Below, piece by piece: positions 12,717 to 52,274 of a stretch of DNA of 64,000 nt. The number at the start of each line of letters is the position of its first letter. Within the stretch, counting starts at the first letter, position 1. The notes below the pieces were generated by a model that saw nothing but the letters and a program-made list of their open reading frames with translations, had not been told where the DNA came from and searched no databases. The position numbers were made by a program, and so were the translations under genes. Source of the DNA: a virus; the IMG/VR virus record IMGVR_UViG_3300021440_000015, positions 32,001 to 96,000 of that record; one strand, 5' to 3'.

Positions 12717-12804
12717 TAAACTTTTTCAGTCACATATACTTAACTTGATTATTGCTGATAGTTTAATCTAGGTTTTTCTAGAACTGTTAGCTAAGGAGAT
12801 AATC
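12717..12804 (+). promoter_or_regulatory. repeated putative early promoter plus bulged-hairpin leader, copy 1
   Basis: TAAACTTTTTCAGTCACATATACTTAACTTGAT is identical (33 nt) to 17126-17158; hairpin 12754-12791; AGGAG SD. Confidence 0.7.
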
Positions 12805-13431
12805 ATGAAAGTTGTTTTCAACCTGTCCCCCGCGCAATCCTTGGTGGCTATTGCCATAAAAGCAAAAAAGTCAGCCTTGATGCGGCTGGAAGCCGGGGAA
12901 GGGCTGGGGAAACATTTCCCCAATTTGCTGAACGGCGAATTGCATTCAGCCCTTGGGGCTGAATGGGAGTTCAAATACGACGGCAATCTCGCCGTCGTAT
13001 TTAACGACGGCATGGCCGGGAAACAGACACTAGAGTTGTCCGAAGACAACTCTAGTGTAACCTACGAGGGTGGTCGGACCACCCTCGTAGACGGCATGGC
13101 CGGGTGTATCTTGACCCTGCGAGAAATCGCAGGGGGTGATGAGAAGAGTCTGAAGGTGATCTCTTACGAGACTACCGATCCCAGCCTAAGCTGGTGGGAA
13201 ACCACTAGCATGGCTATCCGACGTAAGTCGGATGAGGAGTTAGCTGCTCTGTCAAAGCAACGGAAAACCTGGCGTTTTCTAGATCAGGAACTGGACCACG
13301 AGGCCCGTCGGCGTATTCCGACAAAATTAGCCGACCTCGTGTCGGCTGGGAAAACAAAGCTGGTCTCGGCGAGTTTCACCCCCAGTGAAATCCGCCGTTA
13401 CACGGTTCTAAAGCCGTGTCTGGTTGAGTAA
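12805..13431 (+). CDS. hypothetical accessory protein (cassette gene, visibly GC-richer than flanks)
   Basis: 208-aa ORF with strong SD, its own promoter-like motif and terminator. Confidence 0.75.
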   Translation: MKVVFNLSPAQSLVAIAIKAKKSALMRLEAGEGLGKHFPNLLNGELHSALGAEWEFKYDGNLAVVFNDGMAGKQTLELSEDNSSVTYEGGRTTLVDGMAGCILTLREIAGGDEKSLKVISYETTDPSLSWWETTSMAIRRKSDEELAALSKQRKTWRFLDQELDHEARRRIPTKLADLVSAGKTKLVSASFTPSEIRRYTVLKPCLVE

Positions 13432-13477
13432 AATAACACCCCTAGCCATAACAGGCCGGGGGTGTTATTTTTTTTGT
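13432..13477. terminator. bidirectional terminator
   Basis: AATAACACCCCTAGCC...GGCCGGGGGTGTTATT plus T-tract; similar to 17752-17796. Confidence 0.75.
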
Positions 13478-14347
13478 TTAACAGTCTACTGCACAGATAT
13501 GTGGATTAGCTCTAGAAGCTCCGGCTGTATATTCCTCACCTGTGTTTTCCACTATGGGTGTGTCACATAACACTTTACCGGCTCTTTCAGTAATTGTCCC
13601 ACCGGCAGTATTGGTTATACCACCACCAGCAGTCTCAGTGATCTCATCACCTTTCTCATCTATCTTAGGAGCTGTGGTTAACACTCTCTCAGTAGCTTCA
13701 AAGTGTATAAACGGAGCTTTAAGATGTATCTTCTCTAAGGCATTTATAGTGATGGTGTTACTAGGGCTGTCCAACACATAGTAGTTACCCACATCATCCT
13801 TTACCTCTACATACCCCTTTCTGGTATCTATCTTTACATCATACTCAAAAGGTTCACCATCAGACTTTGTAGTCTTTAACCAAATATGTTTGTCTTTGGT
13901 GCTTACCTCATACCAGTAACTAGATAGCTTGTCGAAAGCTCTCTTAGTTATACCTGTAGCTAGATTACTGAAAGCGTATAAAACTCTTTCTAGTCTTCTT
14001 AGCTTAGGTTCTCTATAGATAGTAGTCCAATAGTACTTATCTGTATCAGCATAGCTAAAGATAATCACAGTTTCGTTCACTACCACATCAGGAGATGTGA
14101 TGCGGTTACTATGTGCAAAAGGAAACCATCTGGCTTCTATGATCACTGAACTTTCAGCAGATGCTTTCTTTATAGTACCTGACATATCTTTGTAGTCAGC
14201 TTTGAACTCTTCTTTATGTTCAGATAACTTACCGTCTACATAAGAGTATTCTTCTATAGGGACTACTTTGATCATATCTGTGTCATCTGGCTTAGTTTGC
14301 ACCACGATGCCCAGAGAGTACAGTTTTAACTTTGACTCAGTTATCAT
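13478..14347 (-). CDS. baseplate central spike/hub-like protein
   Basis: N-terminal OB-like region (SPDVVVNETVIIFSYADTDKYYW); C-terminal beta-helix-like repeats (ITETAGGG ITNTAGGT ITERAG). Confidence 0.65.
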   Translation of the reverse strand: MITESKLKLYSLGIVVQTKPDDTDMIKVVPIEEYSYVDGKLSEHKEEFKADYKDMSGTIKKASAESSVIIEARWFPFAHSNRITSPDVVVNETVIIFSYADTDKYYWTTIYREPKLRRLERVLYAFSNLATGITKRAFDKLSSYWYEVSTKDKHIWLKTTKSDGEPFEYDVKIDTRKGYVEVKDDVGNYYVLDSPSNTITINALEKIHLKAPFIHFEATERVLTTAPKIDEKGDEITETAGGGITNTAGGTITERAGKVLCDTPIVENTGEEYTAGASRANPHICAVDC

Positions 14348-14436
14348 TTTAAATCCTTGTTTAACATCACAAAATAAACTCTGATATTTCTTTAAGACTC
14401 AGATAAATCAGATGTATAAAGCCTAAAAGGATCGAC

Positions 14437-16935
14437 ATGCAGATAAAAGAAGTGGTGATTAAAGGCTATGAGAGAATGTCTTTGAACTCTATAGAGTATT
14501 TCAAATACAATCCAGATAAGAAAATACAACTCATCCTTGGTAGTAACGGATCTGGTAAAAGCAGTTTGATTAAAGAATTGAGCCCTCTACCTGCTGAGGC
14601 TTCTGAATATAAGAAGTCAGGTTACAAACATATAACCTACCAACATAACGGAAGCACCTATGCCTTAAAGAGTGACTTCACAGCTCTGGGTAATAAGTTT
14701 TCTTTTTGTAAAGATGGAGAAGAGCTTAATCCTGGACACACAGTAACTGTGTTTAAAGAACTTGTCAGAAAAGAGTTTAACATCACTCCAGATGTACATG
14801 GGCTTATGACAGGTAGAGTTAAGTTCAGTAAGATGTCTGTGGCTGAGAGAAGAAAGTGGTTTACGCAGATAGCTGATTGTGATTACACCTTTGCTATATG
14901 TTTCTACAACAAGCTTAAAGAACAGTACCGAGATATACAAGGAGCTGTCAAGCTACAGCAAGCTAGGTTAGTGCAGGAGACTAACAAGCTGCCTAATGAG
15001 CAAGAGCATATCAAATACAGAGAAGACATACGTCATCTGAACATGTTCTTAGACGGATTGCTTTCTCAAACAGATCAGTCTATTTTAAAGGCAAGCACAC
15101 TTTCTGATTTTGACGCTATACAGCTCAAGCTTAGGAAAGCAGCCACAGATACCGTTCAAGACAGAAACAAGTTCATCAATCCAGAAAACTATGTAGGTAA
15201 GCAAGAGATACTTGACGATTTGCTATTTGTTAAATCAGATATCAAGTCTTTAGAAACTCTTCTGCATAAGGTCTATCAGGAGATGGATGAGCAGAGTAAA
15301 TCTATAACTCTGTTAGAACAGAATAATCTGGCTTCATTTAAAGACTTGGATGTAAGCATCAAAGACATAGAAGAAGAAATAAACAATCTATCCAAACAGC
15401 TGTCATTCCCACTGGTCAAGAATCCAGATACAGTTTCAGCTGCTTTGTCTTCTGTTAAACCACAGCTAGATGAGTATCTGACAGAGATGCATAGGCATGC
15501 TAACAAAGGCTACTCAAAGGAAAGCTATCAAAGCACCGTTCAGACTTTAGATGAACTTATTCTTAAGCTTAATAACACCAAGTTTGCTTCTGATAAACTG
15601 TTTACCCAGCTAAAGGAATACGATCACGCTAAACAACACAACGAAGTCAGCTGCCCTAACTGTAAGCATACTTGGTTTAAAGGCTTCTCTCAGTCTCTGT
15701 ATGACGAGTGTGTGAGATCCAGAGAGATACTTGATAAAGACATACCTGTGTTAGAACAGCAAATCAAAGTTCTAGAGTCCACAAAGGCAGAGCAATTTGA
15801 GTATCTGACTTGCATGAGTATGTTTGTTAAGTTGATAACCCAGGTAGAATCATTAGACAGCATGTGGAAATACATCATGTCTTACGGTTCTCTGAGAACA
15901 GCTCCTATAGGTGTAAGACAAATGATCCAAACCTATAGTCAAGAACTGGACATACAGAAACAACTTAGCCTCTGTTCAGATAAGCTATCTGAATTTCTTA
16001 AGATCAAACAGATCACAGCTGAGAACCAAAGCAATGATTTGTCTGCACTTAAAATCAAATATGCTAAGTTAGAACTGTCTGCTCAGGACTATCAGGTAAA
16101 AATCAGAAGAAGTAAAGTAAAAGAACAATCTTTACTTAAGTCTATTTCTATCATAGAGAACCTGGATCTTAAAAAACAAGAGTTAACCAATCTACACATA
16201 GCTCATAATTTTGCTGTAAGGGACATAGAGAAAACTATCAGTCAAGATTTTATAGCTTCTTGTATCAGGTTGGTTAAGTCTGAACTGGCTAGTTTGACCC
16301 AGATGGTGTCGAGGATAGATATCCAAGCAGCTCTGCTCACCTCTATAGAGAAACAGATAGCTGAGTACCAAGAACAAGCTGAAGTGTATAAGATCATGTT
16401 GAAAGAGTTAAGTCCTACTGAAGGACTTATCGCTAAGGGGCTGATCAACTTCATCAATCACTTCGTCATACAGATGAACGCCATTATCAAGAAAGTCTGG
16501 TTATATCCTCTTGAGATACAGCCTGTCTTTCAACTAGACGATGAGTTAGAACTTGATTATAAGTTTCAAGTCAAAGTCAATGATAAGAATGATATCTCTG
16601 ATGTAAGTCTGGGATCATCTGCTATGAAGGAAGTGATAGACATGGCTTTCATGAGAGTGTCTATGAAGTACCTAAAGCTAGATAAAGCACCTTTGTTCTT
16701 AGATGAGTTTTCTGTTAACATGGACTCTGCTCACAGAAAGTCAGCTTTCAACACTGTAACTGACCTGATGACTAACTCTAATCATAGTCAAGTCTTTCTG
16801 ATATCTCATTATGAAGACAGCTATGGTAGTATAGCCAATGCAGATGTGGTAGTACTATGTCCTAACAACGTGGTAATACCTAAAGGCTGTGGATATAACA
16901 ACTGTGTAGATTTTACTGAACCTGCTTTAATGTAA
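14437..16935 (+). CDS. sbcC: SbcC/Rad50-like SMC ATPase
   Basis: Walker A GSNGSGKSS, long coiled coils, central zinc hook CPNC, Walker B LFLDE, ISH motif. Confidence 0.88.
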   Translation: MQIKEVVIKGYERMSLNSIEYFKYNPDKKIQLILGSNGSGKSSLIKELSPLPAEASEYKKSGYKHITYQHNGSTYALKSDFTALGNKFSFCKDGEELNPGHTVTVFKELVRKEFNITPDVHGLMTGRVKFSKMSVAERRKWFTQIADCDYTFAICFYNKLKEQYRDIQGAVKLQQARLVQETNKLPNEQEHIKYREDIRHLNMFLDGLLSQTDQSILKASTLSDFDAIQLKLRKAATDTVQDRNKFINPENYVGKQEILDDLLFVKSDIKSLETLLHKVYQEMDEQSKSITLLEQNNLASFKDLDVSIKDIEEEINNLSKQLSFPLVKNPDTVSAALSSVKPQLDEYLTEMHRHANKGYSKESYQSTVQTLDELILKLNNTKFASDKLFTQLKEYDHAKQHNEVSCPNCKHTWFKGFSQSLYDECVRSREILDKDIPVLEQQIKVLESTKAEQFEYLTCMSMFVKLITQVESLDSMWKYIMSYGSLRTAPIGVRQMIQTYSQELDIQKQLSLCSDKLSEFLKIKQITAENQSNDLSALKIKYAKLELSAQDYQVKIRRSKVKEQSLLKSISIIENLDLKKQELTNLHIAHNFAVRDIEKTISQDFIASCIRLVKSELASLTQMVSRIDIQAALLTSIEKQIAEYQEQAEVYKIMLKELSPTEGLIAKGLINFINHFVIQMNAIIKKVWLYPLEIQPVFQLDDELELDYKFQVKVNDKNDISDVSLGSSAMKEVIDMAFMRVSMKYLKLDKAPLFLDEFSVNMDSAHRKSAFNTVTDLMTNSNHSQVFLISHYEDSYGSIANADVVVLCPNNVVIPKGCGYNNCVDFTEPALM

Positions 16936-16946
16936 AGGAAAGAATC

Positions 16947-17120
16947 ATGTTTGAAAATATCAAGACTCGTGAAGAGTTTGAAAAAGTGGTGAGTGAGCTT
17001 ATCGAACAGGCCAAGAAGGAAGATAAAGTTCTGGAGATCTATACAGAACCTACCAAACCTTTGCGCATGGGTGGATATAAGATGATATCTTCTGTGAGAG
17101 AGGCTAGAGTGCTTTCTTGA
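16947..17120 (+). CDS. small hypothetical protein (57 aa, MFENIKTREEFEKVV...)
   Basis: AAGGA SD, ATG 16947 to TGA 17120; below the ORF-track length cutoff. Confidence 0.6.
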   Translation: MFENIKTREEFEKVVSELIEQAKKEDKVLEIYTEPTKPLRMGGYKMISSVREARVLS

Positions 17121-17125
17121 CCTTG

Positions 17126-17215
17126 TAAACTTTTTCAGTCACATATACTTAACTTGATGTATAGCTATAGTTTAATAGATCTGTTCTGATCTGACTACTA
17201 GCTGAGGAGTACATT
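17126..17215 (+). promoter_or_regulatory. repeated putative early promoter plus bulged-hairpin leader, copy 2
   Basis: 33-nt identity with copy 1; hairpin AGCTATAGTT-taat-AGATC-tgttct-GATCT-GACTA(c)TAGCT, then GAGGAG. Confidence 0.7.
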
Positions 17216-17308
17216 ATGGATTGGCTCGATATCATTGTGATCGCCTTTGCGGCGATCACCACCCCAGCAATTGTCTGGGAAGCAGTGACGGATCGCCGCC
17301 GTCGCTGA
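17216..17308 (+). CDS. 30-aa hydrophobic peptide MDWLDIIVIAFAAITTPAIVWEAVTDRRRR
   Basis: GAGGAG SD 6 nt upstream; single TM-like segment with a basic tail. Confidence 0.6.
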   Translation: MDWLDIIVIAFAAITTPAIVWEAVTDRRRR

Positions 17309-17394
17309 CTTCCCAAGAGGTTGACAACTAACCTCTTTAAATAAATGGTTGGGTCGTAACCTGCCCTGACGCTTGGCCAGCAAAAAGGGATTAC

Positions 17395-17445
17395 TGATCT
17401 GTCTAAGTTCACATGTCGTGAATACAGATTAACAGGAGAAACAAA
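17395..17445 (+). promoter_or_regulatory. bulged-hairpin leader without adjacent promoter motif (copy 2b)
   Basis: TGATCTGT-ctaa-GTTCAC-atgtc-GTGAAT-ACAGATTA followed by AGGAG. Confidence 0.55.
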
Positions 17446-17751
17446 ATGAGCATGATACCGCTCAGAGAAAGGGCAGAAGGCTGGACAACTGATGAGTCAG
17501 TTGTCCGTCAGCTGCGGCAGAAGGCCGCAACGAAGGCGGCGGAAATCGCCGCTTGTGGTGATGATGACTACATCCATTATAAGGATGTGGTGCTAGCCAC
17601 AACGCCAGTTGGTGAAAACTGGCACGAGTACGAAACACTTCTTAGCACTCGCGACGAAGAGTTAAAGAAAGAGCTACGTCCAGTTGATGCCTGGATGTGG
17701 AGCGGCAGGAGCAAAAAATGGGTATACCGTTGCAACGGTTACCTAGATTAA
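17446..17751 (+). CDS. hypothetical accessory protein
   Basis: 101-aa ORF with AGGAG SD, followed by a terminator. Confidence 0.7.
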   Translation: MSMIPLRERAEGWTTDESVVRQLRQKAATKAAEIAACGDDDYIHYKDVVLATTPVGENWHEYETLLSTRDEELKKELRPVDAWMWSGRSKKWVYRCNGYLD

Positions 17752-17796
17752 AAAATCATCCCTAGCCCTTACAGGCCGGGGATGATTTTTTTTGTT
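17752..17796. terminator. bidirectional terminator
   Basis: AAATCATCCCTAGCC...GGCCGGGGATGATTT plus T-tract. Confidence 0.75.
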
Positions 17797-19727: not shown

Positions 19728-19755
19728 ATCGTGTCTTTACCTGAAAGAAAAAAAA

Positions 19756-20151: not shown

Positions 20152-20187
20152 ATTTATCAACTGACTTGTTATTTAAAAGAGAGCTGT

Positions 20188-21660
20188 ATGGACACACAAA
20201 TCAATGCCGTGGTTTACATCGACGGTTCTGCCAGACCCAATCCAGGTAAAATAGGGTTTGGCACTCACGGCTATCTGTTTAGTTTAGAAGGTAAACCTTC
20301 TGTTAAGTTAGATGGTGGGTATCTTCTCACCAATAAAGGCTATAAGAAACAGCTTAAAGACGGCATCGTCGAAGTATCTCCTACGCAGTTTATAGATTTC
20401 ATTGGTACCTCAGCTGTGGATGGAACCAACAACCGAGCTGAGGTCTTTGCTTTTCTATCCACGCTTAAAGAACTACAACAGCATAAACCCAAGTCTATTC
20501 ATTTTCTCACAGATAGTGAATATGTCAAGAAAGGTTTGACTGAGTGGTGTAAAGGCTGGGAAAGAAATAATTGGATCAAGCAAGATGGTCTGCCTGTGGT
20601 TAATGCAGATATCTGGATGGAAGTCTATGCTTACTATAAGCAACTTCTCTCTGTAGGACAAGAGATCACGATTGAGTGGGTCAGAGGTCATAACAACGAC
20701 ATGGGCAATACCAGAGCAGATGCTTTGGCTGTGATCGGTATGAACTACTCCACAGACAATCTCTGTAAGGATCATTATACCTACAGCGACCCTAAGGGTT
20801 ATTGGAAATCATCAGTAGACCGCCATCCCTTCCTGAACTTTAAAAGAGTTTATTTCAATACCACCCAAGAGTATAACATAGCTGGCAGCTATTTCCAAGC
20901 GGAACCAGGTAAAGGCGTGGGTGATTTCATCATCGGTAAGCGTATACCTGAAACTGGTTTTGCTGTGGTGAGACTCTATGAGCCTGAAAAAGTCATTGAG
21001 GATGTCAAAGCCAAACAAATTGATCATGCTAATAATCACAACTCTATAGTGATGATGAAGCTAGATCGGGTATACAGCAAAGAAGTCTATCCTTATCTAG
21101 AGAAACATGGTAAGTATTGTTTACTTGGTGACAAGAAGTCTAAAGGGTTGAACTTCCTAGATAATCAATCGGTTACCGTAGAGCTGAATCCAACTAACCT
21201 GTCCATGAGAGCAATCGAGACTTTCAACTTCCTTGAGGATATGTTGATTAAGTTTCAAACTTACTCTAAAACAGGCTGTGATCTGCCTGATAACCACAAC
21301 GGTTTTCAGATCCATGATGTTACAAGTACATTCTATGACCTGGAATCTAAACTTGTAAAAAAGGAGTCCGTCACTCAACATGTTCTTAAACCTGAATATA
21401 CTTCAGCTCTGAAAAACATTAAGCTGTCTATCTCTGTCACCTACAAGGAAAGAACTGACAAGATAGACCTACCTGTGTTATTCGGTCTGGACATTCCACC
21501 CCGGAATAACCTTAAAAAGCTAGAGGATCATTCTCCTAAGATTTTTTTAATCTCTTGGAGAGACTCAGAAAGAACTCTTCGCTATGCATTTGTAATAGAA
21601 TGTAACTCTGGTATCGGTATATGGTCTAACTATTTTGCCGATAGAATTTTTCTTAACTAA
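20188..21660 (+). CDS. rnhA: RNase HI with long C-terminal extension (phiKZ gp155-like)
   Basis: YIDGSARPNPG, TNNRAE, TDSEYV, WVRGH, GNTRADALA. Confidence 0.88.
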   Translation: MDTQINAVVYIDGSARPNPGKIGFGTHGYLFSLEGKPSVKLDGGYLLTNKGYKKQLKDGIVEVSPTQFIDFIGTSAVDGTNNRAEVFAFLSTLKELQQHKPKSIHFLTDSEYVKKGLTEWCKGWERNNWIKQDGLPVVNADIWMEVYAYYKQLLSVGQEITIEWVRGHNNDMGNTRADALAVIGMNYSTDNLCKDHYTYSDPKGYWKSSVDRHPFLNFKRVYFNTTQEYNIAGSYFQAEPGKGVGDFIIGKRIPETGFAVVRLYEPEKVIEDVKAKQIDHANNHNSIVMMKLDRVYSKEVYPYLEKHGKYCLLGDKKSKGLNFLDNQSVTVELNPTNLSMRAIETFNFLEDMLIKFQTYSKTGCDLPDNHNGFQIHDVTSTFYDLESKLVKKESVTQHVLKPEYTSALKNIKLSISVTYKERTDKIDLPVLFGLDIPPRNNLKKLEDHSPKIFLISWRDSERTLRYAFVIECNSGIGIWSNYFADRIFLN

Positions 21661-21674
21661 CTCGTTCGTTTATC

Positions 21675-22121: not shown

Positions 22122-22134
22122 CAAAAAAAGCATT

Positions 22135-22172: not shown

Positions 22173-22177
22173 TTTCT

Positions 22178-26715: not shown

Positions 26716-26793
26716 GTATGGCCCCTTTCTTTAATTAGTAAAGTAACATATATTTTAGTTGAGTCGACCCACACTAACCATTCTGAGGATTCA

Positions 26794-27291
26794 ATGTTTC
26801 AAAAAATCAAATCATGGTTTCAAAAACCAAGAGAACCGACACAACAAGAAAAAACAACTAAACTTATTCGTAAACTAAAAAACTTGGATTACGGATTTGT
26901 TTATTCATCAGATTTAGCTTTGGTTAGACTTAATCTAGTCAAGAAAAATATTTCTGACTATATCAGTTATCTCAGAAAGATCAACAGGATGCTTTCAGGT
27001 AATGATGAAATCTATCCAAATTCTATTTCGAGTATTCGATATCAGATACAATTACCAGATTGGTTTATTGTAAAAGGTGGTTTTATTAACCCAAATGAAC
27101 AAATGGTTTTATTCTTAGAGGAAATAGAATCGTTCATGGATATTTATAACAAGCTTGATAATAATCATGCTCGTACCTATAATCAAGATCATAATCTGAA
27201 AATCGTGGGTAATATCTGCGGTGATCTTCTACTATTTATGAAAGATATTGAAAATGTCTGGAATCAATCCCTTCAGTCTGGATCTCAATAG
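26794..27291 (+). CDS. hypothetical protein
   Basis: 165-aa ORF, GAGGA SD, preceded by a degenerate promoter motif AGTAACATATATTTTAGTTGAG. Confidence 0.65.
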   Translation: MFQKIKSWFQKPREPTQQEKTTKLIRKLKNLDYGFVYSSDLALVRLNLVKKNISDYISYLRKINRMLSGNDEIYPNSISSIRYQIQLPDWFIVKGGFINPNEQMVLFLEEIESFMDIYNKLDNNHARTYNQDHNLKIVGNICGDLLLFMKDIENVWNQSLQSGSQ

Positions 27292-30570: not shown

Positions 30571-30608
30571 AGGCTGAATAAAAGTTTACACAGGGGATTT
30601 CCCCTGTG

Positions 30609-30696
30609 TAAACTTTTTTAGTCATATATATTCTATTTGAGCTATTACCAATGTTTAAGTTACACATCTGTAACACTATTGGTCAAGGAGATACTC
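30609..30696 (+). promoter_or_regulatory. repeated putative early promoter plus bulged-hairpin leader, copy 3
   Basis: AGTCATATATATTCTATTTGAGCTAT; hairpin ACCAATGT-ttaa-GTTACA-catc-TGTAAC-AC(t)ATTGGT; AAGGAG. Confidence 0.7.
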
Positions 30697-30909
30697 ATGA
30701 TTCAATTCAACAAAGAAAACATCATTGCTTTTGCAGTGGGCGCCGCAGCAATCACTGTTGTCGATGCTGCCTGTCGCGCAATCTACCGCGCGCGCAAAAA
30801 CAAAAAAGCTGCAGAAGCCACAAACAAAGCAGCTGCAAAAGAAGCTGGCGAAACAGCAACCACTGCTGGCGAAACAGCAGCGGCAGCCGCCGCAGCTGCT
30901 GCAACCTAA
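30697..30909 (+). CDS. 70-aa Ala-rich small protein with N-terminal hydrophobic helix
   Basis: AAGGAG SD; MIQFNKENIIAFAVGAAAITVV...AAAAAAAAAT; followed by terminator 30922-30958. Confidence 0.65.
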   Translation: MIQFNKENIIAFAVGAAAITVVDAACRAIYRARKNKKAAEATNKAAAKEAGETATTAGETAAAAAAAAAT

Positions 30910-30960
30910 GTTGCTGCGGTCAAAAAAGACACCCTTTTTAGGGGTGTCTTTTTTTTTGCT

Positions 30961-39673: not shown

Positions 39674-42035
39674 ATGCAAACTGCTATGCTGCCATTTAAC
39701 ATAGACCTGTTAAACCTTTCTGACATAGACATCAGAACCATCAGACCTGTTAAGGTTCTAGACATAACCGATGGGCTGACCAAGAACTTTCATCCGGATG
39801 GTTTATTCAGCACCCAAACCTTTGGTATGGTGGGTGAAGAAAAACGAAATAGGATGTTCTCTTATATTAATCTGAATATAAAAGTGCTACACCCTATCAT
39901 CTTTAAATCTTTATACGATCTAAAGTCTCTTTATGGAGATATCATGTCGTCTAAAGCATACGCTATATTTGACCCAGAGTTGAAAGATTTTGTAAAATCT
40001 GATCAGATAGATGGTCAAACTGGTTTCGATTTCTTCATCAAACATCTACCAGAGCTTAAATTTGAACAAAACAGTTCTGTAAGAAGACAGTTTAATATCA
40101 AGCTAGTGGATAAGTACAGACAAAAAGCTCTTATAGATAAGTTTGTCGTAATGCCTGCTGGTTTAAGAGATTACGTTTTAGACGAGAATAATCAACCTAG
40201 TGAGGATGAAATAAATACACTTTACAGAAGAGTATTATCTTTATCTAGTATTATAGGTACCGTAAACTCACAGCTAAATGCTGAATACTTCAACAACATG
40301 CGGTTTCAGCTACAGCTTGCCTGTAATGAGATTTTTGAATACATAAAAAATCTTCTTGAGGGTAAAAGCAAACTCATACTTGGTAAATGGGCAGGTAGAA
40401 AAACCTTTCACTCCACCAGAAATGTTATTACGTCCTATATCAGCAAGAATACACAGCTATTTGGTCCTAGACATGTATCATCCACGCAAACTGTAGTAGG
40501 CCTGTACCAGTATTTAAGAGCTACTCTGCCTTTATCCATAAAGAATGTGAGGGACGGTTTTATAGGAAGTGTCTTTACAGGGCCGAACTCACCTATGATA
40601 CTGGTGAATAAAAAGACGCTGAAAAAAGTAGTAGTTCCTATCAATCCTAAGGAATATGACAAATGGATGACTAATGAAGGCTTGGAGAAAGTCTTTGCTA
40701 CCTATGGACAAGAGAACCTCAGACACAGTTATGTGGAGATATCTGATCACTACGCAGGTTTAATTTTTAAAGGTAAGGACGGGACTTATAAAATCTTCCA
40801 GGACATAGATGAGTTACCCGAACGTTACAGTAGAGAAGATGTGACACCTCTGACTATAACAGAACTCATTATGTTGAGTGTCTATGGAGATTCATCTGAA
40901 ACACCTTGTTTCACAACAAGATATCCTATTACAGGATATGGTAGCATATATCCCAGTTATGTATATCTTAAAACCACAGTAGAATCTGACACAAGAACCC
41001 TGCTAGATGACAAATGGGAACCTACCGAATTTGCTTGTGCTGAGTTTCCAATATACGGAAATGGGTTTTATAATTCCTTTTCAGTAGCCTCTAAAAATTT
41101 ATCAAGACTTGGTGCTGATAAAAAGGATAAAAAATGAGTTAAACGTATTCTCATTTTGTTATCCAATTGTCCTCTTAAATAGTAATATTTAAAGAGATTT
41201 TTCTTGAATTGCTGGAACATCCTAAAGTTAATCCACCACCGCTAGATGAAAATCAAAGCCAAGGTTTGAAAACGGATTAAATGAAACAATGGGTAATCAG
41301 CAGCTAAGACGCTAAAGTTGACTCTATAGTCAACCATGCGTAAAGTTCAACGACTAACCCTTAAGCAAGGTGTAGGAGATAGTATCTCCGAAGTGGGAAA
41401 CGCCCTACTGTTTATACAGAGGGTGAAGATATAGTCTGCTCCTTTGGGAAAGCCAAAGGCGGGTGTCTTAACACACCGGGTTACTTTATGATAGGTTTGA
41501 AACCGAACGACTGTAACTGGACAATAGGTTCGATAAGTAACATTGTCGCATACAGAAGAAATTCTGTAATGAAAACTTCTTGAATTGCTGGAACTCCCTT
41601 AGAGCCTAATCACCACTGCGAGGCGAAAGCTAAAGCCAAGGTTTGAAAAGATTAGGATTGGGTTATCAGCAGCGAAGCACCGTATAGGTGAACGTTCAAC
41701 GACCATCCCGTAAGGGAGTAGGATCTAGCAGATCCGAAGTGGGAAGCATCTTATCAGATAAAGCTGAAGATGGTGATATGGTCTGTTCCTGTATGAAAGT
41801 ACAGGCGGGTGTCTGAGCACACCGGGTAAAGAGTGTAGGTTTATATAACCGAGCGACTTTACTGGACAATAAGGGTGATACAATGTCCTTAGTTTGCGTT
41901 ATGTCTGAAGAAGCTAAAGCAGAAATCAGAAATAAGATAAACTCTAGAGATTTTTACGTGGGTGTGAACAATAAAATGAACTTTAGTGGTTCTGATGATG
42001 TTCTTGACCTTACCTTAGCTAATATGACGGGCTAA
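39674..42035 (+). CDS. virion RNA polymerase beta' subunit (phiKZ gp180-like), spliced: join(39674..41119,41529..41534,41874..42035), about 537 aa
   Basis: FHPDGLFS, VMPAGLRD, GKWAGRK, TRYP motifs; joining the exons restores catalytic LGADFDGDTMS in frame; alternative start 39650. Confidence 0.9.
41120..41528 (+). ncRNA. group I self-splicing intron 1 in vRNAP beta' (no endonuclease ORF)
   Basis: Exon ends in U; IGS TTGTC (41167-41171) pairs GAT|AA with U.G at the splice site; P GAATTGCTGGAA, Q AATCAGCAG, R GTTCAACGACTA, S AAGATATAGTC; P7.1/P7.2 hairpins; terminal G. Confidence 0.9.
41535..41873 (+). ncRNA. group I self-splicing intron 2 in vRNAP beta' (no endonuclease ORF)
   Basis: IGS TTGTCG (41543-41548) pairs CGAT|AA; P GAATTGCTGGAA, Q TATCAGCAG, R GTTCAACGACCA and S GATATGGTC (compensatory P7 change); terminal G at 41873. 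Confidence 0.9.
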
Positions 42036-42039
42036 AAAC

Positions 42040-45000: not shown

Positions 45001-47717
45001 GTAGGTGAAGGCGGAAGAGGAAAAGAATCTATGAACAAAGCCACTAGGGCTTTTCATGTTTCTAATGTGGGTGTGGTATCTGAAGCCTCTGTAGATAGTG
45101 GTGACGTAGGTATAAACTTTTATCTTTCATCTAACCCTAATTTTAAGGACATGCGAGGCATAGTTAAATCTGACAAGAAGATAACTCCTACGTCTATGGT
45201 AAGTACAGCCACCATGCTTGCACCAGGTAGTAGTAAAGATGATTAAATATATACAGTGAGGAACTGTATATGATTGAATGTAATACACCTAATTTTAAGA
45301 TTCCAAAAGGTTACTCTAAATACAGAGTCTCGCCAGATGGAAAAGTTTTTTCGTTTCATAAAGAAAAGTTTTTAAAAGGGTCTATAAATCCAGCAGGTTA
45401 CACCAATATTAGATTAACATCCGATAATGGTGTAACATTAACTTGGGGATTGCATAGACTGATAGCGTTTTGTTTTATTTGTAGTGATTATGAAAAGTTT
45501 GGTGAGTTGTATGTAAACCATAAGGACGGTAATAAACACAACAACGCACTTGAAAATCTTGAAATCGTAACACCTAAACAGAACGTTGAACACGCAGGTC
45601 TTAACAACTTAAGTAGAAAGTGTTTACCTATTTTGGTAAGAGATGTTAAAAGTGGTTTGATATCGGAATACCCTAGCATCATTGAATGTTCCAAACATCT
45701 TGGTGTTAGTAAGGATACTGTTTTATACAGATTAAGATATCTAGGTAAGAGATTATCGCCATCTGGTCAACAATTCAAACTGAAGAAAGATAAAACACCT
45801 TGGGTTGAAATAAAAGATTTAGAAGAAGCGAAAAAACTTTACGGTAGGAACAAAAGCGTTGCGGTGAGAACATATCCAGCTATTGAAAGAATCACTATCT
45901 ACAGTAGTTGTAATGAAGTATCGTCAAAATTAGGCTTAAGCGCAGGTTATGTTTCTCAGTTGTTTTACAACAAAGATCAGCCGGTTATAGATAATTTTAT
46001 TCAGCTTAAACCTAATGATAATTCGATACCTTGGGTAACACACACAGATTTCATTGAAAGTTATGAAAATTTCACAGGGTGTAAAGTCATAACTGTTTGG
46101 AACTGTTTGACAGACGAAAGAAAAATATATAAGTCTGTCACAAGTTGCGCTAGTGATAATGGTATTAAAATAACTACCTTACATTGGCGTTTAAACCAAG
46201 AAGCAAAGGTTCACCGTGACGGTAGAAAGTATGTGTATTACAGTCAGTTAAGTCCTTTGGAAAAGAAACTTTTCAAAGAATCTCTTTGAATTGCTGGGAA
46301 CTCTTGTTAGATCACTGAACCACTGCGAGGCGAAAGCCAAAGCCAAGGTTTGAAAATCAGTGAGTAGAGACAATCAGCAGCTAAGACGCTAAAGTTGATT
46401 CTGATCAACCATGCGTAAAGTTCAACGACTAAGGTTTTATCAACCTGTAGGGTACCTAGCGGTATTCGAAGCGGAGAGCACCCTACTGTATACAGAGGGT
46501 GAAGATATAGTCTGTTCCTGTATGAGAATATAGGCGGGTGTCTGAGCACACCGGGTAAAGAGGGTAAGCTGTGAAGCTGAGCGACTTTACTGGACAGTAA
46601 GGGAAAACGCGTCAACTTTGTCCAAATACAGATGTCTCATTTAATCGCGTGTAAAGATTATCATCAACCTATCGTAAGAACAGGTTATGAGTATGTAGTA
46701 CCTAATAGAACATCTGAAATATTTGCCTATAATGCCAAAGACGACGGTGAGGTTATCTCATTGGCTAAAACTGGTTTGATCGTCAAGTATAAAAACGGCG
46801 AGCAAAAAGGCATACAGCTTGGTCGTATTTACGGAAAAGCTGAAGGTAGTGTATACCCACATGACATTGTTTCTAGTGTTAAACTCGGTGATAAGTTTAT
46901 CAAAGGTGATAACATAGCTTATAATACAGGTTTCTTTGAGAAAGATTTACTTGATCCAAAAAGAGTAGTTATGAAAAACTCTATGACGATCAAAGTAGCT
47001 CTGATGGAAACCAACCAGACTCACGAAGATAGTTGCTCTATTTCTAATAGAGTGTCTTTAATGTCTAGTGCCAAAACCACAAAAATGAAATCGGTCACTG
47101 TTTCCTTTAAACAAAACTTGCACAATGTTGCATCTTTTGGACAAAGAATAAAACCGAATGATATTTTGATGGTAATGGAAGATGAAATTACTTCCACAGG
47201 TCATTTTGATGAAGAATCACTTTCACTATTAGCCGACTTATCTAAACAGTCTATTAAGTCTAAATACGACGGGGTTTTAGATAGAATAGAAGTTTACTAT
47301 CACGGTAGTAAAGAAGATATGAGTCCTTCTTTAAGAGCACTTGCTGATAAAAGTGATCAGGTATTAGAAACTATATGTAAATCGACTAACTCGCCTGTAG
47401 TCACGGGTGAAGTTAACGATGAATACAGAGTAGCTGGTTCTCGTCTGAGTTTAGACAAAGCTGAGATAAAACTTTATATAACCATGGATACAATCAGCGG
47501 TACAGGTGATAAACTTGTGTTCGCTAATCAAATGAAGAGTGTGGTGGGTGAGGTAATGGATTATGATGTAAAGACAGAATCCGGTGAGAGAGTAGATGCC
47601 ATATTTGGTTTTCGCTCAATCATGGCTCGTGTAGTGACATCACCTATAATCATAGGTACCACAACCACCTTACTTAAAAAAGTTGCTGAAAAAGCTGTCA
47701 AAGTTTACAAAGGTTAA
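42040..47717 (+). CDS. virion RNA polymerase beta subunit (phiKZ gp178-like), spliced: join(42040..45243,46602..47717), about 1439 aa
   Basis: RpoB-like motifs SEASVDSGDVG, RTGYE, HEDS, GDKLVFANQMKSV; joining gives KDD|GKRVNFVQIQ, equivalent to RpoB HDDANRALMGANMQ. Confidence 0.9.
45244..46601 (+). mobile_element. mobile group I intron 3 carrying an HNH homing endonuclease in the P1 loop
   Basis: Exon ends GAT; IGS ..AAGTC near 46250-46254 followed by P2; P GAATTGCTGGGAA, Q AATCAGCAG, R GTTCAACGACTA, S AAGATATAGTC; terminal G at 46601. Confidence 0.9.
45270..46289 (+). CDS. HNH homing endonuclease (NUMOD4-like N-terminus, HNH, repeated NUMOD1-like HTH modules)
   Basis: IPKGYSKYRVSPDGKV, LHRLIA..F, VNHKDGNKHNNALENLE, three Y.S...C/V....G modules. 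Confidence 0.9.
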   Translation: MIECNTPNFKIPKGYSKYRVSPDGKVFSFHKEKFLKGSINPAGYTNIRLTSDNGVTLTWGLHRLIAFCFICSDYEKFGELYVNHKDGNKHNNALENLEIVTPKQNVEHAGLNNLSRKCLPILVRDVKSGLISEYPSIIECSKHLGVSKDTVLYRLRYLGKRLSPSGQQFKLKKDKTPWVEIKDLEEAKKLYGRNKSVAVRTYPAIERITIYSSCNEVSSKLGLSAGYVSQLFYNKDQPVIDNFIQLKPNDNSIPWVTHTDFIESYENFTGCKVITVWNCLTDERKIYKSVTSCASDNGIKITTLHWRLNQEAKVHRDGRKYVYYSQLSPLEKKLFKESL

Positions 47718-47719
47718 TC

Positions 47720-47911
47720 ATGGCAATTCCTAACTTAACTGTGCATAATACAGTTGTCATAGCTAATATCGGTCAAGTTGTTAATAGCATTTTGACTAAT
47801 ATTGCTGGTAATGACATTTCTAACGCTATCAACGGCTCTAAGGCTACTGTTGAAGTAATTCACAGCTTGGTTAAACAACGCATCCAAGCCAAAATAAAAA
47901 ACACTAAATAA
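47720..47911 (+). CDS. small hypothetical protein
   Basis: 63-aa ORF coupled to the vRNAP beta stop; hairpin follows at about 47919-47948. Confidence 0.6.
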   Translation: MAIPNLTVHNTVVIANIGQVVNSILTNIAGNDISNAINGSKATVEVIHSLVKQRIQAKIKNTK

Positions 47912-47980
47912 AAATAGATACCTAGCTAGGTAATACTAGCTGGGTATTTAAACACCGCATTCTTTCTTTAGGAACAGATC

Positions 47981-49444
47981 ATGTTAGATAAAGTAATTTT
48001 GACTTCTTCGTTTGAATTGGCAGAAAGACTCGCCAGCGAGAAAAAAGTTATAGTTGTAAATTCAAATAGCTTACTTGGACAGCTGACTGCTTTGTCAACT
48101 GCTAATGTAAACAACAGTGTGCTACCTCAATCTGCTGAAGCTAATACACCAGAGCAGATTTCTTTTTTAGCAGACATTATTTCTAATTTTACATCTGGAA
48201 ATGGTGAAAATGCAACATTACACGACAGTGCTCTTGACGACATAGTCAGCAATCTGAGTAAAGTTGTTACTAACCACATAGCTATTGCAAGAACCGTTGT
48301 TAAACCGCATGTATTAGACTTTATGTCTGATTACGCAGAATATTGCAACAGGACCAAACTTATAGATCCAGCCGGATCGTTTAATATTGTTCAAAAAGAA
48401 CTTCCATCTTTATTTGAAGATGAATCTTTTATAGAGCAATTTAAATATTACGAAGGTAAAATGGCTGTGATGCCAAAGACATATGTAGATATGTCTAATG
48501 TAAGGTTGGATCCTGAAACTATTTTAAAGACAGGTTCGGCTCGTATCGACAAAATGATAGATGAGATCGCTCAGGAAATGGGGCCTGATTTCATCTCTGG
48601 TGTTTTAAGTTCTTTTATAACTAAGAACAACGTAACATCCAATGATGTTGGCTATAGTAACTTAGGCCAGCAGAACTTATACGACGCTATGTATATTTCA
48701 CTTGTGTTGTATCTGAGTGCTCAGAAACTACACAATAACGTACCTGAAGGACTAGACACAAGTCTAGAAATTTATCAGAACTGCATGCTTGAGATAAGAG
48801 ACTTTGCAGGCTCCATGCTTAACAACCTCATTAAGCGTGCCTATTTCATGCTTAAGAGCAACACTCTGATATTGAAATCTGACAGTCGGAATAAAACTGT
48901 CTACGTTCAAGGGTCTGTTTATAGATCTTTCATTGAGCAGGGCGGTGCTGTTGAGATGATTTTAGGTATTTGTGCGACGGATAGCGGTTTGGCTATTATG
49001 GGCTCTATACTTGACAATAGAGATGTACTAATTAAAGGCTGGAATTCTTACTGTACCTTTATGTCAGTAACAGCTGAAAATTCTAAACTTGAAAATACCA
49101 AGTCGTATTTAACAAGTGTTTTTAACACGGCTATGAATAATCTGTCCGATGTTGAAAAAGAATACTCGCTGAAAAATCCAAAATACGTGGAAACTGCAGT
49201 TAAGCTTGCTAATGATTATATCAAAGAACTCAAGCTGCATGATTTAGACCTTGTATCCGAATTATCACTCAACCTGATGGCTAATTGTCGGTTCTTCTTT
49301 ACTGCTGGGTATCAGATTTTGTCCGGTATTGAACAAGCCACCAAACTCAATGTGAATCTTGATCCAAGAGAAGCTGCTTTGGTCTCCGCTGTTAACTACA
49401 TTACTGATTTCTTAGTAGATCAGACTACAATAGCACAAGTATGA
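47981..49444 (+). CDS. conserved phiKZ-like protein (probably virion-associated)
   Basis: 487-aa ORF between vRNAP beta and the protease, as in phiKZ-like gene order. Confidence 0.65.
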   Translation: MLDKVILTSSFELAERLASEKKVIVVNSNSLLGQLTALSTANVNNSVLPQSAEANTPEQISFLADIISNFTSGNGENATLHDSALDDIVSNLSKVVTNHIAIARTVVKPHVLDFMSDYAEYCNRTKLIDPAGSFNIVQKELPSLFEDESFIEQFKYYEGKMAVMPKTYVDMSNVRLDPETILKTGSARIDKMIDEIAQEMGPDFISGVLSSFITKNNVTSNDVGYSNLGQQNLYDAMYISLVLYLSAQKLHNNVPEGLDTSLEIYQNCMLEIRDFAGSMLNNLIKRAYFMLKSNTLILKSDSRNKTVYVQGSVYRSFIEQGGAVEMILGICATDSGLAIMGSILDNRDVLIKGWNSYCTFMSVTAENSKLENTKSYLTSVFNTAMNNLSDVEKEYSLKNPKYVETAVKLANDYIKELKLHDLDLVSELSLNLMANCRFFFTAGYQILSGIEQATKLNVNLDPREAALVSAVNYITDFLVDQTTIAQV

Positions 49445-50154
49445 AATACATACGCAGCTCAGCGTGTAAAAGAAATTTAATAGAAAACGAAAAAGGACAG
49501 ATCATTACAAAAGAAAATTGTAAGATACAGATACCTTTTCGTTTTTCTGTTAGAGGTCTTGGTGAAGTAGGTGTTAACACTCGTGCTTATGGGTGCTTAC
49601 CTATCATCTTTGAGAATGGAGAATTTACTCTGTGTAATGTAACTGCTATTTTAGATTTAAATCCATTTAAAACAGCTGTTGTAATGATAGATGATGTTGA
49701 GTACTATGAATTTACATTCAGAGCAGGTGACGTCGTTATTAAGAACACAGAGGTAGTTAGAGATGACCTGTTAATGTATAACATCTTTGACGAGTTTATT
49801 TTCAAAGGTAAGATACCTTGGTATATGGGCTATGAAGATGTAGGTAAGTTATTCGACACAGCCGATAGCCATGCTGGTAGTGCGGTTGCTTCTAACTATG
49901 AGGTTATTGAACTAATAGCCTCTATGGTTACAAGAAGTAAAGATGACAGAACTAAATATATACGATCTGTTGCTAAAACTGATGAAGATTTTAATGACAG
50001 TAAAATTAGTTATGTACCTCTAAGTAGTATTTTCTACTCTGTTAACAGCACAGTTAACAAAATAGCTGGTAGTTATTTCTCTGATGGTGTTGTGAGTGCT
50101 TTGGTTACTCCTACTACTAAAGTAGATAAAATTGAAAGCATACTTCGAGCTTAA
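49441..50154 (+). CDS. conserved phiKZ-like protein
   Basis: 237 aa; GKIPWYMGYED, KIAGSYF motifs; ATGA-coupled. Confidence 0.65.
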   Translation: MKYIRSSACKRNLIENEKGQIITKENCKIQIPFRFSVRGLGEVGVNTRAYGCLPIIFENGEFTLCNVTAILDLNPFKTAVVMIDDVEYYEFTFRAGDVVIKNTEVVRDDLLMYNIFDEFIFKGKIPWYMGYEDVGKLFDTADSHAGSAVASNYEVIELIASMVTRSKDDRTKYIRSVAKTDEDFNDSKISYVPLSSIFYSVNSTVNKIAGSYFSDGVVSALVTPTTKVDKIESILRA

Positions 50155-50246
50155 GCCTATCTGGAGCCATTAGGCTCCAGATAGTTCTTATCGTTTTTAA
50201 TTAAATACAGTGGTTGCAGTTATTTTTATCTTATATTGAGGCAGGC

Positions 50247-51020
50247 ATGGGACAAATCAAATTTACATCTACCAGGCTTGAGGGCACTGGTAAAAAAGGG
50301 TTATTGAAACCTGACAGTGCAGGATACTATACACTGCCTGTAGGTGGTCTTAACGTGTTTAATAGCGTAGGTCAGTTCTATACAGCAGATGGTGCTAAGA
50401 AGTTGTTTGAGGCTAGTAGCATCTTTATGCGTAGAGTTAAGTCAGGATGTCTTAAAGGTGAATCAGGTCATCCTAAGAGATCACCTGGTATGTCTATGGA
50501 TGACTACCTGAACAGGATACTGACTATTGAAGAAACCAATGTGGTCTGTCACTTTTCTGAGATTTGGCTAGATGAAGATTTCGGAAGAAGAAATCCTAAG
50601 TTTAACAACAAAGATTTGATAGCTATTATGGCTAGAGTGAAGCCAGCTGGTCCTCATGCTGCATCTTTGGAAGCTTCTTTAAATAATCCTGAAGAAGAAG
50701 TTTGCTTCTCTATCAGAGCTTTAACCAGAGACTTTATGTTTAAAGGTACGACCCATCGCGTACTTGAACAAATCGTAACTTGGGATAACGTGGTGGAACC
50801 AGGCTTATCCTTAGCTAAGAAAACATACAGTCCTGTATTAGAGTGCATGGCTGAACAGGAAGTTAAAGTAAGTCAGCTTGAGAAATTAGCTACAAGCATG
50901 GGTTCTTTAGTAGCTACTGAATCTTCTCTGGCTTTGGCTAAAGAAGCTTATGAGGCTGTTAGGAACACAAACCCTTCTGGTCTTAAAGTAGTTACTCTTC
51001 CAACGTTTTCTCGTTGGTGA
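50247..51020 (+). CDS. prohead core protease (phiKZ gp175-like, T4 gp21 family)
   Basis: LKGESGHP, FSIRA (catalytic Ser), TWDNVVEPG. Confidence 0.85.
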   Translation: MGQIKFTSTRLEGTGKKGLLKPDSAGYYTLPVGGLNVFNSVGQFYTADGAKKLFEASSIFMRRVKSGCLKGESGHPKRSPGMSMDDYLNRILTIEETNVVCHFSEIWLDEDFGRRNPKFNNKDLIAIMARVKPAGPHAASLEASLNNPEEEVCFSIRALTRDFMFKGTTHRVLEQIVTWDNVVEPGLSLAKKTYSPVLECMAEQEVKVSQLEKLATSMGSLVATESSLALAKEAYEAVRNTNPSGLKVVTLPTFSRW

Positions 51021-51088
51021 TAAACATCTATCTATACACCCGAGCCATATAGGCCGGGTGTATAGATATATCTGCTTATAAATAAATA

Positions 51089-51168
51089 CAGTCACATATA
51101 TTTTATTTGAGCTATCGCTGTGGTTTAATGGATCTGTTCTGATCTGACTCTCAGCTAAGGAGATAATC
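51089..51168 (+). promoter_or_regulatory. repeated putative early promoter plus bulged-hairpin leader, copy 4
   Basis: CAGTCACATATATTTTATTTGAGCTAT; GCTGTGGTT-taat-GGATC-tgttct-GATCT-GACTCTCAGC; AAGGAG. Confidence 0.7.
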
Positions 51169-51462
51169 ATGAGGGATGTGATGAAACATCTCATCCACCC
51201 GACTTTGTCGGCGTGGGTCTTCGGTCTCGTCCGAGAGGATGAGACCGTACTCGCCTTTGGGTGGGTTGACGACACGGGTGCGAAGACCCGTGTAGGCTCC
51301 ATCACACGAGAGTGTGATGGAGAGGGCTTCATTGTCCTCACCATGAGTGGTGAGGAAGCCCGGCCGTCCAGCCAGAACGAACTGTTCTGGTTTCTGTGGG
51401 CGCTTGACGCCCACGGCGGGGACATGGACAAAGCCACGATCTGGATGCACAGTCGTGGCTAA
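51169..51462 (+). CDS. hypothetical accessory protein (GC-richer cassette gene)
   Basis: 97-aa ORF with strong SD; terminator AAAGATACCAGGGA-aa-TCCCTGGTATCTTT follows. Confidence 0.7.
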   Translation: MRDVMKHLIHPTLSAWVFGLVREDETVLAFGWVDDTGAKTRVGSITRECDGEGFIVLTMSGEEARPSSQNELFWFLWALDAHGGDMDKATIWMHSRG

Positions 51463-51584
51463 AAAGATACCAGGGAAATCCCTGGTATCTTTTTTTTTGT
51501 TTTAAATATCTATTTATGTATGTAGATTTTTTTTGGGCATATTTACTTAAACTGAACAAACTTCAGAACCCAGAAAGGACACAA

Positions 51585-52178
51585 ATGTTTATCGAAATCA
51601 AAAAAGAAATAGCTGCTAAGTATAGCCAGCATTGGGAATTGCTAGATCCAGCACATCGCCAATCTCATTTTGATATGGTTTTTAATAACGGACTGATCAT
51701 ATCAAAAAGACTCAACATCGACATTCGACCTGAAGAAATATTGGCAGTGGCTTATTTTCACGATCTGTTTACTTGGTCTAGGTCAAATCACCATTTTCTG
51801 TCGGAGACTTTTATACGCACTACAAAGTGTAGTATTGTGCAGTCACTTTGCGACACTTCTGAAAGTATAGAAAGAGTAGCTTTAGCGTGTCGTGAACACA
51901 GGGCGTCGTAGACTGGTTCCTACAGTGGGGATTTAAGTATTGTAATGTCAGCTGCTGATAGAGATATACCTAAGACAGCGTCTGAGTTACTAAACAGATC
52001 TGTACTGTATACAAAAACCCATAATCCTGAAATGAGCGCTGCTGAAGTAAGAGATACTGCTATAACCCACATCAAGGAAAAATATGGAAGAAATGGCTAT
52101 GCTAGAATACCTGAAATTCATAAAAGAAGCTATGTAAATGAGTATGAAGTTCTGTATAAAGAAATAGATCTTTTATAA
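51585..52178 (+). pseudogene. HD-domain phosphohydrolase interrupted by one in-frame TAG (51909-51911)
   Basis: H...YFHD...HH...EHRAS*TGSYSGDLSIVMSAADR continues in the same frame to TAA 52178. Confidence 0.7.
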
Positions 52179-52192
52179 GTTCTTGTAAAATA

Positions 52193-52274
52193 TTTCAGTC
52201 ACGTATATTCTATTTGAGCTATCGCTGTAGTTTAAGTCGTTCTTTCTGCGACACTATCAGTTAAGGAGATACTC
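52193..52274 (+). promoter_or_regulatory. repeated putative early promoter plus bulged-hairpin leader, copy 5
   Basis: TTTCAGTCACGTATATTCTATTTGAGCTAT; GCTGTAGT-ttaa-GTCGT-loop-GCGAC-ACTA(t)CAGT; AAGGAG. Confidence 0.7.

Follow-up and report, generated by a model that had tools for sequence, protein, structure and literature searches.

A promoter-linked structured leader on early-type units of a phiKZ-like giant phage contig

In phages of the T4 type, the element called PeSL (an early promoter, a stem-loop, a Shine-Dalgarno sequence (SD) and a start codon) is repeated before small genes of unknown function and also scattered inside conserved gene blocks, and its copies mark junctions at which close relatives replace, gain or lose genes; its promoter follows the host sigma-70 consensus, and its stem-loop, located at or before the promoter, terminates upstream transcription (PMC2839356, in the accessible part of the paper). 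The early consensus of phage AR9 consists of an AT-rich block and six bases followed by a G that is the start site, the start sites of phiKZ and phiR1-37 likewise lie 6 nt after the block, and an unexplained motif in early 5' untranslated regions (UTRs) of AR9 is mentioned (its Fig. S3; PMC5312081, accessible part); according to the accessible text of a review (PMC7598289), all giant phages that encode a polymerase have such blocks, centred near -10. The present work concerns a stretch of 64,000 nucleotides (the window; bases 32001-96000 of one virus contig of 120,257 bp and 39.8% G+C, IMG/VR record IMGVR_UViG_3300021440_000015), in which a phiKZ/AR9-type early promoter (CAGTCACATATAYT-N6-G) is fused, in repeated copies, to a leader of 60-63 nt with a covarying predicted fold. 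Feature coordinates are window positions unless marked as contig positions.

The window encodes a tail sheath that shares 46% identity with the one of Burkholderia phage FLC9, whose giant-phage record measures 322 kb; Ralstonia phages RP12 and RP31 supply the next matches. The phage genes include a split multisubunit RNA-polymerase beta, an SbcC-like nuclease and a giant tail-fibre and transglycosylase protein. The leader element also occurs in two close relatives, here called G002 and G003, which encode a homologue of the phiKZ nuclear-shell protein chimallin (E 1.7e-23 and 1.4e-21, respectively), and the public runs that contain phage sequence are labelled freshwater or aquatic metagenomes. 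The tail sheath, the split polymerase, the chimallin of the relatives and the freshwater runs thus identify the contig, on sequence comparison, as a fragment of an uncultured freshwater phiKZ-like giant phage; CheckV puts the completeness of the virus record at 44%.

The promoter-leader repeat

A first-pass annotation of the window had described six bulged hairpins as copies of one conserved RNA leader, and at all six sites the positions, the stems, the GT-(T/C)TAA context and the AGGAG that closely follows the 3' outer arm are borne out. When 120 nt around each site were aligned, however, only five of the hairpins (12754, 17163, 30647, 51117 and 52224) proved to be homologous, being the centre of one ~95-nt repeat in which a TTGTAAA-like hexamer is followed by CAGTCACATATAYT, TTGAG and, at the far end, the start codon; the sixth (17395) has no part of the repeat's sequence and is considered below with the divergent copy.

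The promoter part of the repeat was searched for in two ways. Allowing up to 2 mismatches, CAGTCACATATA has 23 matches in the whole contig, 11 of them with full promoter context and all of these on the + strand, and the stricter 18-nt pattern CACATATAYT-N6-G matches 11 times on the + strand and never on the - strand, and its reversed-pattern control has 0 matches. The same pattern gives forward/reverse counts of 8/0, 0/9 and 10/0 in the relatives G001, G002 and G003 (reversed controls 0). Both scans combined yield 12 promoter-like sites in the contig. Behind nine of these stands the leader family, behind one (contig position 111818) a divergent version of it, and behind the remaining two, at contig positions 21564 and 58741 (the latter being window 26741), other leaders.

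The leader itself was searched for with a covariance model (R1) built from 15 sequences. As the first-pass annotation had proposed, the full genome and its relatives were scanned: R1 finds exactly nine copies in the 120,257-bp contig, all on the + strand and scoring 56.2-83.3 bits (next best, 15.2 bits), four of which fall outside the window, and at a threshold of at least 45 bits it finds further copies in G002 (8), G003 (13), G004 (5) and G005 (1) and none in the complete 272-kb relative G001. Relatives from IMG/VR and metagenomes enlarge the family: 48 matches reduced to 28 distinct sequences, to which three from metagenome contigs were added to give the set of 31 used for alignment. A loose leader pattern run on IMG/VR returned mostly chance among the matches listed; of 77 new loci screened with R1, five were hits, four of them in contigs already known and the fifth (L077) borderline at 29.3 bits and without promoter. 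In all 28 distinct family members the promoter stands immediately 5' of the leader. The earlier proposal of a multi-copy cis element in the 5' UTRs of a co-regulated gene set is supported.

The start of the transcript is predicted by analogy. In the contig six bases separate TATAYT from an invariant G, and conservation among unrelated leader types stops two bases past that G; the AR9/phiKZ rule therefore predicts that transcription starts at this conserved G, six bases beyond the CACATATAYT block, and we infer that the promoter is transcribed by the virion polymerase. Three metatranscriptome runs and one DNA run contain the phage, all as contigs, so that no start, strand or level can be read from the RNA; one RNA contig covers 17191-17435 and another the 26741 promoter, the start position being readable from neither.

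Two further observations concern promoters of this kind. At contig position 21564 and in three metagenome contigs (L161, L162 and L158) a strong hairpin with a U-run comes directly after this promoter; instead of mRNA leaders, these units may represent small RNAs or attenuators. G002 and G003 (L170 and L171) have, 5' of the gene adjoining the chimallin homologue, a second conserved block, TACTAATACYATATACTTTATGTGA, similar to the early block yet distinct from it; it does not occur in the window, and it may represent another promoter class.

Predicted fold, covariation and divergent members

Folded from the conserved G to the AUG, eight of the nine copies in the contig have the same three-helix rod as their minimum free energy (MFE) structure. 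In the first helix, P1, the first 7-8 nt pair with the bases between SD and AUG; P1 is taken to begin at +1 because the start is placed by the AR9/phiKZ rule. A six-base bulge holding the SD (UAAGGA) is followed inward by P2 (8-9 bp), which is the outer stem of the first-pass annotation, and then by a four-base 5' bulge, UUAA, which lies between P2 and P3 and has G-C and U-A as its closing pairs. The variable inner hairpin, P3, has 4-7 bp and a loop of 3-8 nt. The copies in the window, together with the sixth site and a further promoter of the same type, are as follows.

12714..12746, + strand: early-type promoter block (TTATAAA..CAGTCACATATACT-N6), from alignment and motif matches; predicted +1 is G12747 by the AR9/phiKZ rule (PMC5312081, accessible part)
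12747..12807, + strand: leader copy 1, with P1, P2, UUAA bulge, P3 (TCTAG/CTAGA) and SD bulge; ATG 12805; R1 67.4 bits; MFE -19.6 kcal/mol, z -4.01
17123..17155, + strand: early-type promoter block; predicted +1 is G17156
17156..17218, + strand: leader copy 2, with P3 AGATC/GATCT and a P1 sequence of its own, GAUGUA/UACAUU; R1 56.2 bits; MFE z -2.29
17216, + strand: ATG of leader copy 2, opening an open reading frame (ORF) of 30 amino acids (aa)
17395..17448, + strand: sixth site, with ATCTGT/ACAGAT stem, CUAA bulge, GTTCAC/GTGAAT hairpin and AGGAG; ATG 17446
26728..26796, + strand: promoter of the same type, with two mismatches, before a leader of another kind that folds weakly; ATG 26794; z +0.20
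30606..30638, + strand: early-type promoter block, a hairpin overlapping its upstream part; predicted +1 is G30639
30639..30699, + strand: leader copy 3, P3 GTTACA/TGTAAC; ATG 30697; R1 75.4 bits; MFE z -1.58
51076..51108, + strand: early-type promoter block; predicted +1 is G51109
51109..51171, + strand: leader copy 4, P3 GGATC/GATCT; ATG 51169; R1 71.4 bits; z -0.07, the weakest fold of the nine
52183..52215, + strand: early-type promoter block; predicted +1 is G52216
52216..52277, + strand: leader copy 5; ATG 52275; R1 83.3 bits; MFE structure identical with the centroid, -15.5 kcal/mol
52216-52223 with 52268-52274, + strand: P1 of leader copy 5
52224-52231 with 52253-52261, + strand: P2 of leader copy 5
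52236-52252, + strand: P3 of leader copy 5
52232-52235 and 52262-52267, + strand: UUAA bulge and SD bulge, respectively, of leader copy 5

The copies are paralogous, so that much of their identity is by descent, and their thermodynamic z-scores are modest; both facts would suit a functionless palindrome carried as a passenger in a recently duplicated promoter repeat. The alignment speaks strongly for a fold that is kept. In an alignment of the 31 sequences made with MAFFT only, 87.1% of the cells assigned to pairs are paired, compared with 75.4% in shuffles (none of 500 reaches the observed value) and 29.5-51.5% when the partners are slid; the corresponding values for the model-fitted alignment are 88.7%, 75.4% and 27.7-53.4%. 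Changes on both sides are seen in 14 of 21 pairs of the MAFFT-only alignment (5/5 in P3, 6/8 in P2 and 3/8 in P1), and RNAalifold, applied to the MAFFT alignment, predicts P2 and P3 with 13 pairs, 11 of them compensatory, in keeping with the covariation of outer and inner stems that the first-pass annotation had described from six sites. P3 occurs as 22 different hairpins with 17 different 5' arms, all of which still pair. With such pairing kept in arms of different sequence, with slid-partner controls so much lower, and with a module of unrelated sequence that keeps the same fold between two phages (see below), the passenger explanation appears highly improbable.

Between these variable stems GUUUAA is invariant (31/31 sequences), as expected from the fixed bulge originally noticed, and pyrimidines make up 85% of the P3 loops, where G occupies 2 of 110 positions. 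The paired cells contain 64 G.U and only 3 A.C combinations; the fold is therefore kept by the sense strand only.

For P1 the evidence is of another kind. Duplexes formed by the 5' and 3' arms of the same leader average -4.97 kcal/mol, compared with -3.12 kcal/mol for cross-pairings, and none of 5000 permutations is as good, although such permutation figures overstate independence because the sequences are related. P1 covaries visibly between L037, a paralogous copy in a relative that sits at the position orthologous to the 12746 cassette, and window 17155 (ATACA/TGTAT versus ATGTA/TACAT), and clear cases are also L033 and L163. Covariation is thus strong for P2 and P3 and partial for P1.

The sixth site is not a sequence relative of the other five: it has neither promoter nor P1, and R1 scores it at 7.7 bits (E = 0.13 in a 251-nt search). 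Its module, which follows the 30-aa ORF and a terminator-like hairpin, lies within the unit started at 17136. A strict descriptor of structure only finds six sites in the contig versus 1.44 in shuffles, and four versus 0.04 per shuffled genome when an SD is required; a relaxed descriptor finds nine sites, of which the eight with an SD are seven family members and the sixth site. The orthologue in G002 keeps the fold, with one stem change from T-A to C-G and UCAA instead of CUAA, and the divergent leader at contig position 111818 has GU-UCAA...AC around a hairpin of its own. Because these divergent members share the bulge context, the common core can be reduced to GU, a YYAA bulge, a hairpin and AC, followed by the SD. 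No homologue of the protein encoded at 17446-17751, directly behind the sixth site, was found in G001-G003. The 30-aa ORF directly 3' of leader copy 2 (17216-17308), which is hydrophobic, looks like a real small membrane peptide because it is kept in G002 with several substitutions.

Cassettes and gene exchange

Many of the units are islands of one or two + strand genes between - strand genes, and every cassette examined ends with a strong hairpin and a T-run, several of these terminators belonging to one sequence family. Those that close cassettes in the window are listed here.

13430..13476, + strand: hairpin and T-run terminator closing the 12805-13431 cassette, from the fold; homology with G002 resumes right after the gene stop
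17750..17794, + strand: terminator closing the 17446-17751 cassette gene, from the fold; homology with G002 resumes at 17751
30922..30958, + strand: terminator after a 70-aa cassette gene, from the fold
52762..52800, + strand: terminator closing the 52275-52763 cassette, from the fold

Gene exchange was examined by blastn of the nine units of the contig, with 1.5-kb flanks, against the loci of G002 and G003. The flanks are 87-96% identical to those of the relatives; G002 has other genes in place of those at 12805-13431, 17446-17751 and 30697-30909 and lacks window 51156-52777, a stretch of four genes with a second promoter. The gene behind contig position 21094 is also replaced in the comparison with the relatives, and two units are conserved throughout. 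At four loci conserved flanks enclose genes that are replaced or missing. The promoter-leader front and the terminator back are shared ends, at which related phages swap, gain and lose small early genes. Like the promoter-leader repeat and the third helix P1, the cassette terminators and these junctions had gone unseen in the first-pass annotation.

At the spot corresponding to 51156-52777, G002 has an empty cassette (L039, G002:C1:8444-8502) that keeps the promoter, the 5' arm of P1, P2 and P3 and then has a T-run in place of SD and gene. Contigs of the DNA run X1 join window 12807 to 17316 and 30645 to 13431, at leader or terminator edges; with short sides of only 27 and 39 nt, the joins may be repeat artefacts or population variants. 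Stretches with cassette genes have a G+C content of 44-47% (12001-14000 and 52001-56000), compared with 35-41% in most of the window, which would fit genes acquired from elsewhere. Searches of Pfam and PHROGs with the cassette proteins gave no informative family; only two paralogues fall in phrog_5063, whose function is unknown. Elsewhere in the window, a perfect inverted repeat (TCAGTCAGATAT and its complement, 1249-1286) between two genes is probably a two-way terminator.

That cassette genes are swapped at these units, and that an SbcC-like palindrome nuclease gene lies between two cassettes, brings up an alternative raised with the original hairpins, namely that they act as DNA: as a top-strand hairpin in single-stranded DNA (ssDNA), or a small cruciform, used for recombination, replication or polymerase loading, with an incidental RNA fold. 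Although G.T pairs can also form in ssDNA, the opposite strand, given the excess of G.U over A.C, could not fold, so that the element is not a cruciform. The stems are only 5-9 bp long, it is in every case the coding strand that folds, and the SD-AUG spacer is part of the fold. Promoter and bulge are not a constant distance apart (variation of up to 9 nt), which argues against a fixed DNA site downstream of the promoter, and the exchange needs only shared promoter and terminator sequence. A role as DNA has therefore very little probability.

Possible functions and comparison with known systems

The reading we prefer, with moderate confidence, is that the leader is a cis-acting element of early mRNAs that would protect the 5' end and present the SD independently of context. 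The first 60-63 nt would fold into a rod in which P1 joins the beginning of the RNA to the SD-AUG spacer; the paired 5' end and the compact hairpin would protect early messages from 5'-end-dependent decay, and the leader would keep the ribosome-binding site from pairing with the downstream gene, so that all plug-in genes would be translated efficiently and to a similar extent. P1, being weak, would be melted by the 30S subunit once this had docked on the open SD. The computed accessibilities can be set beside this proposal: the first 4 nt are unpaired with a mean probability of 0.33 in the family (n=26), 0.37 in other leader types behind the same promoter (n=10) and 0.59 for random GA starts (n=300), and in the nine copies of the contig the SD is unpaired with a probability of 0.31-0.77 (at least 0.54 in 8/9), the SD-AUG spacer, mostly paired, with 0.03-0.57, and the AUG with at least 0.58 in 8/9.

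Several facts weigh against a role in protection and SD presentation. The stability of single sequences is modest (z from -0.07 to -4.01, below -3 in only two of the nine copies). P1 is left out of the RNAalifold consensus; it reaches -5 kcal/mol or lower in 21/31 sequences and is weaker than -3 kcal/mol in 8/31, mostly one subfamily of G003. The predicted start rests on the AR9/phiKZ rule, the RNA runs with the phage being contigs that show no starts. P1 covers the spacer and could equally brake translation, and the module of the sixth site works without a 5' end. Finally, the invariant GUUUAA and the pyrimidine loops exceed the needs of a plain stabiliser and point to a partner.

If there is such a partner, the leader could be the operator of a trans-acting factor (a phage or host protein, or a nuclease) that reads the UUAA bulge and the pyrimidine loop. 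Early messages would then be handled jointly: they would be shut off or cleaved when expression moves on to the middle genes, or a factor would be loaded on the polymerase for read-through of terminators; nut, put and TAR-type elements are parallels for such loading. The complete conservation of GUUUAA while the neighbouring stems vary freely is what an operator would lead one to expect, as is the GU-YYAA...AC kept by the divergent members (as CUAA, UCAA and UCAA), the near absence of G from the loops, the presence of the module also inside an operon, just after a terminator-like hairpin, and the strong terminator at the end of every cassette examined. The searches described above, however, identified no candidate binding protein, and the cassette genes belong to no family; with 22 P3 hairpins among 31 sequences a reader would have to ignore most of P3; and the element embraces SD and spacer, which suits a ribosome-centred role equally well. 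We consider the operator rather unlikely on balance, and it stays a serious rival because the invariant bulge and the pyrimidine loops are better explained by a trans-acting reader than by a plain stabiliser.

A more speculative idea, which we regard as doubtful, is that the GU-YYAA bulge and the pyrimidine loop form a 'self' tag on the early messages of a nucleus-forming phage, read by a dedicated factor. Privileged treatment of the tagged RNAs by this factor might consist in passage from the early transcription site to the ribosomes, in selective translation, or in exemption from a phage-induced attack on host mRNA. If the idea were true, the variable P3 would be a spacer and the bulge an address.

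Almost nothing is known of how early messages are stabilised, translated and switched off in phiKZ-like giant phages, which have their own transcription. A ~62-nt leader supported by covariation, carried by almost all early units of a phage clade, offers a concrete handle in its one mutable invariant bulge. Together with the terminator, the promoter-leader ends organise gene swapping in phages without host-type promoters, and a small self-contained expression part of this kind could serve phage engineering.

Among known RNA and DNA elements two could be set aside. The kink-turn consists of a 3-nt bulge followed by tandem sheared G.A pairs, and is ruled out here by a bulge of 4 nt and by first P3 pairs that are variable Watson-Crick or G.U. 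The attC site of integrons is an imperfect hairpin at the 3' end of a promoterless cassette, read by the integrase, and a site of this type is ruled out by the position of the present element at the 5' end, joined to promoter and SD. The ompA 5' stem-loop and the leader of T7 gene 10 exemplify 5'-terminal stabiliser hairpins and strong-SD phage leaders, which belong to single genes or form simple hairpins; the likeness lies in a stem at or next to +1, an exposed strong SD and an occurrence on highly expressed phage messages. Unlike these, the leader described here pairs its 5' end with the SD-AUG spacer, holds the SD in a bulge, and has in addition the invariant UUAA bulge and the pyrimidine loops.

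Databases and literature contain no such element as far as they were covered. The original statement that no known RNA family could be assigned holds, in that Rfam has no match on any site, at the gathering score or with E up to 5; elsewhere it gives only chance matches and three group I introns (78-88 bits; 41139-41458, 41525-41805 and 46229-46534), located in or around the split RNA-polymerase beta genes. The 93-nt unit has no match in 50,697 GenBank phage records, and no description of such a structured leader was found in the accessible literature, which included giant-phage transcriptome papers and reviews and lay outside subscription journals and supplements.

The closest counterparts of the promoter are the virion-polymerase promoters of phiKZ- and AR9-like phages, with which it shares a conserved AT-rich block, 6 nt and a conserved G, a T-rich stretch upstream, and an occurrence in about 10 or more one-strand copies before small early genes (PMC5312081, PMC7598289, PMC8244752 and PMC11512511, in their accessible parts). 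It differs in that the block sequence is specific to this clade and that its use by the virion polymerase is inferred, and in the structured covarying leader, which is present here and not in the accessible parts of those descriptions.

The closest counterpart of the unit as a whole is PeSL, which it resembles in its composition, in the small genes that it precedes, in being dispersed within conserved gene blocks as well and, at four loci, in marking junctions of gene replacement, gain or loss (PMC2839356, accessible part). A TTGTAA-like hexamer and TATAYT, ~15 nt apart, are present here, but the spacer and the +1 region are conserved like the hexamers, and on this analysis the layout would fit the early type of AR9 and phiKZ better than sigma-70. 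In contrast to PeSL, moreover, the stem-loop is transcribed, lies downstream of the predicted +1 and has no U-run; it is part of a three-helix covarying leader around the SD; and the cassettes are closed by terminators distinct from it. Because the position and role of the stem-loop differ, and probably the promoter type, the unit is not PeSL, although it works like PeSL in genome plasticity.

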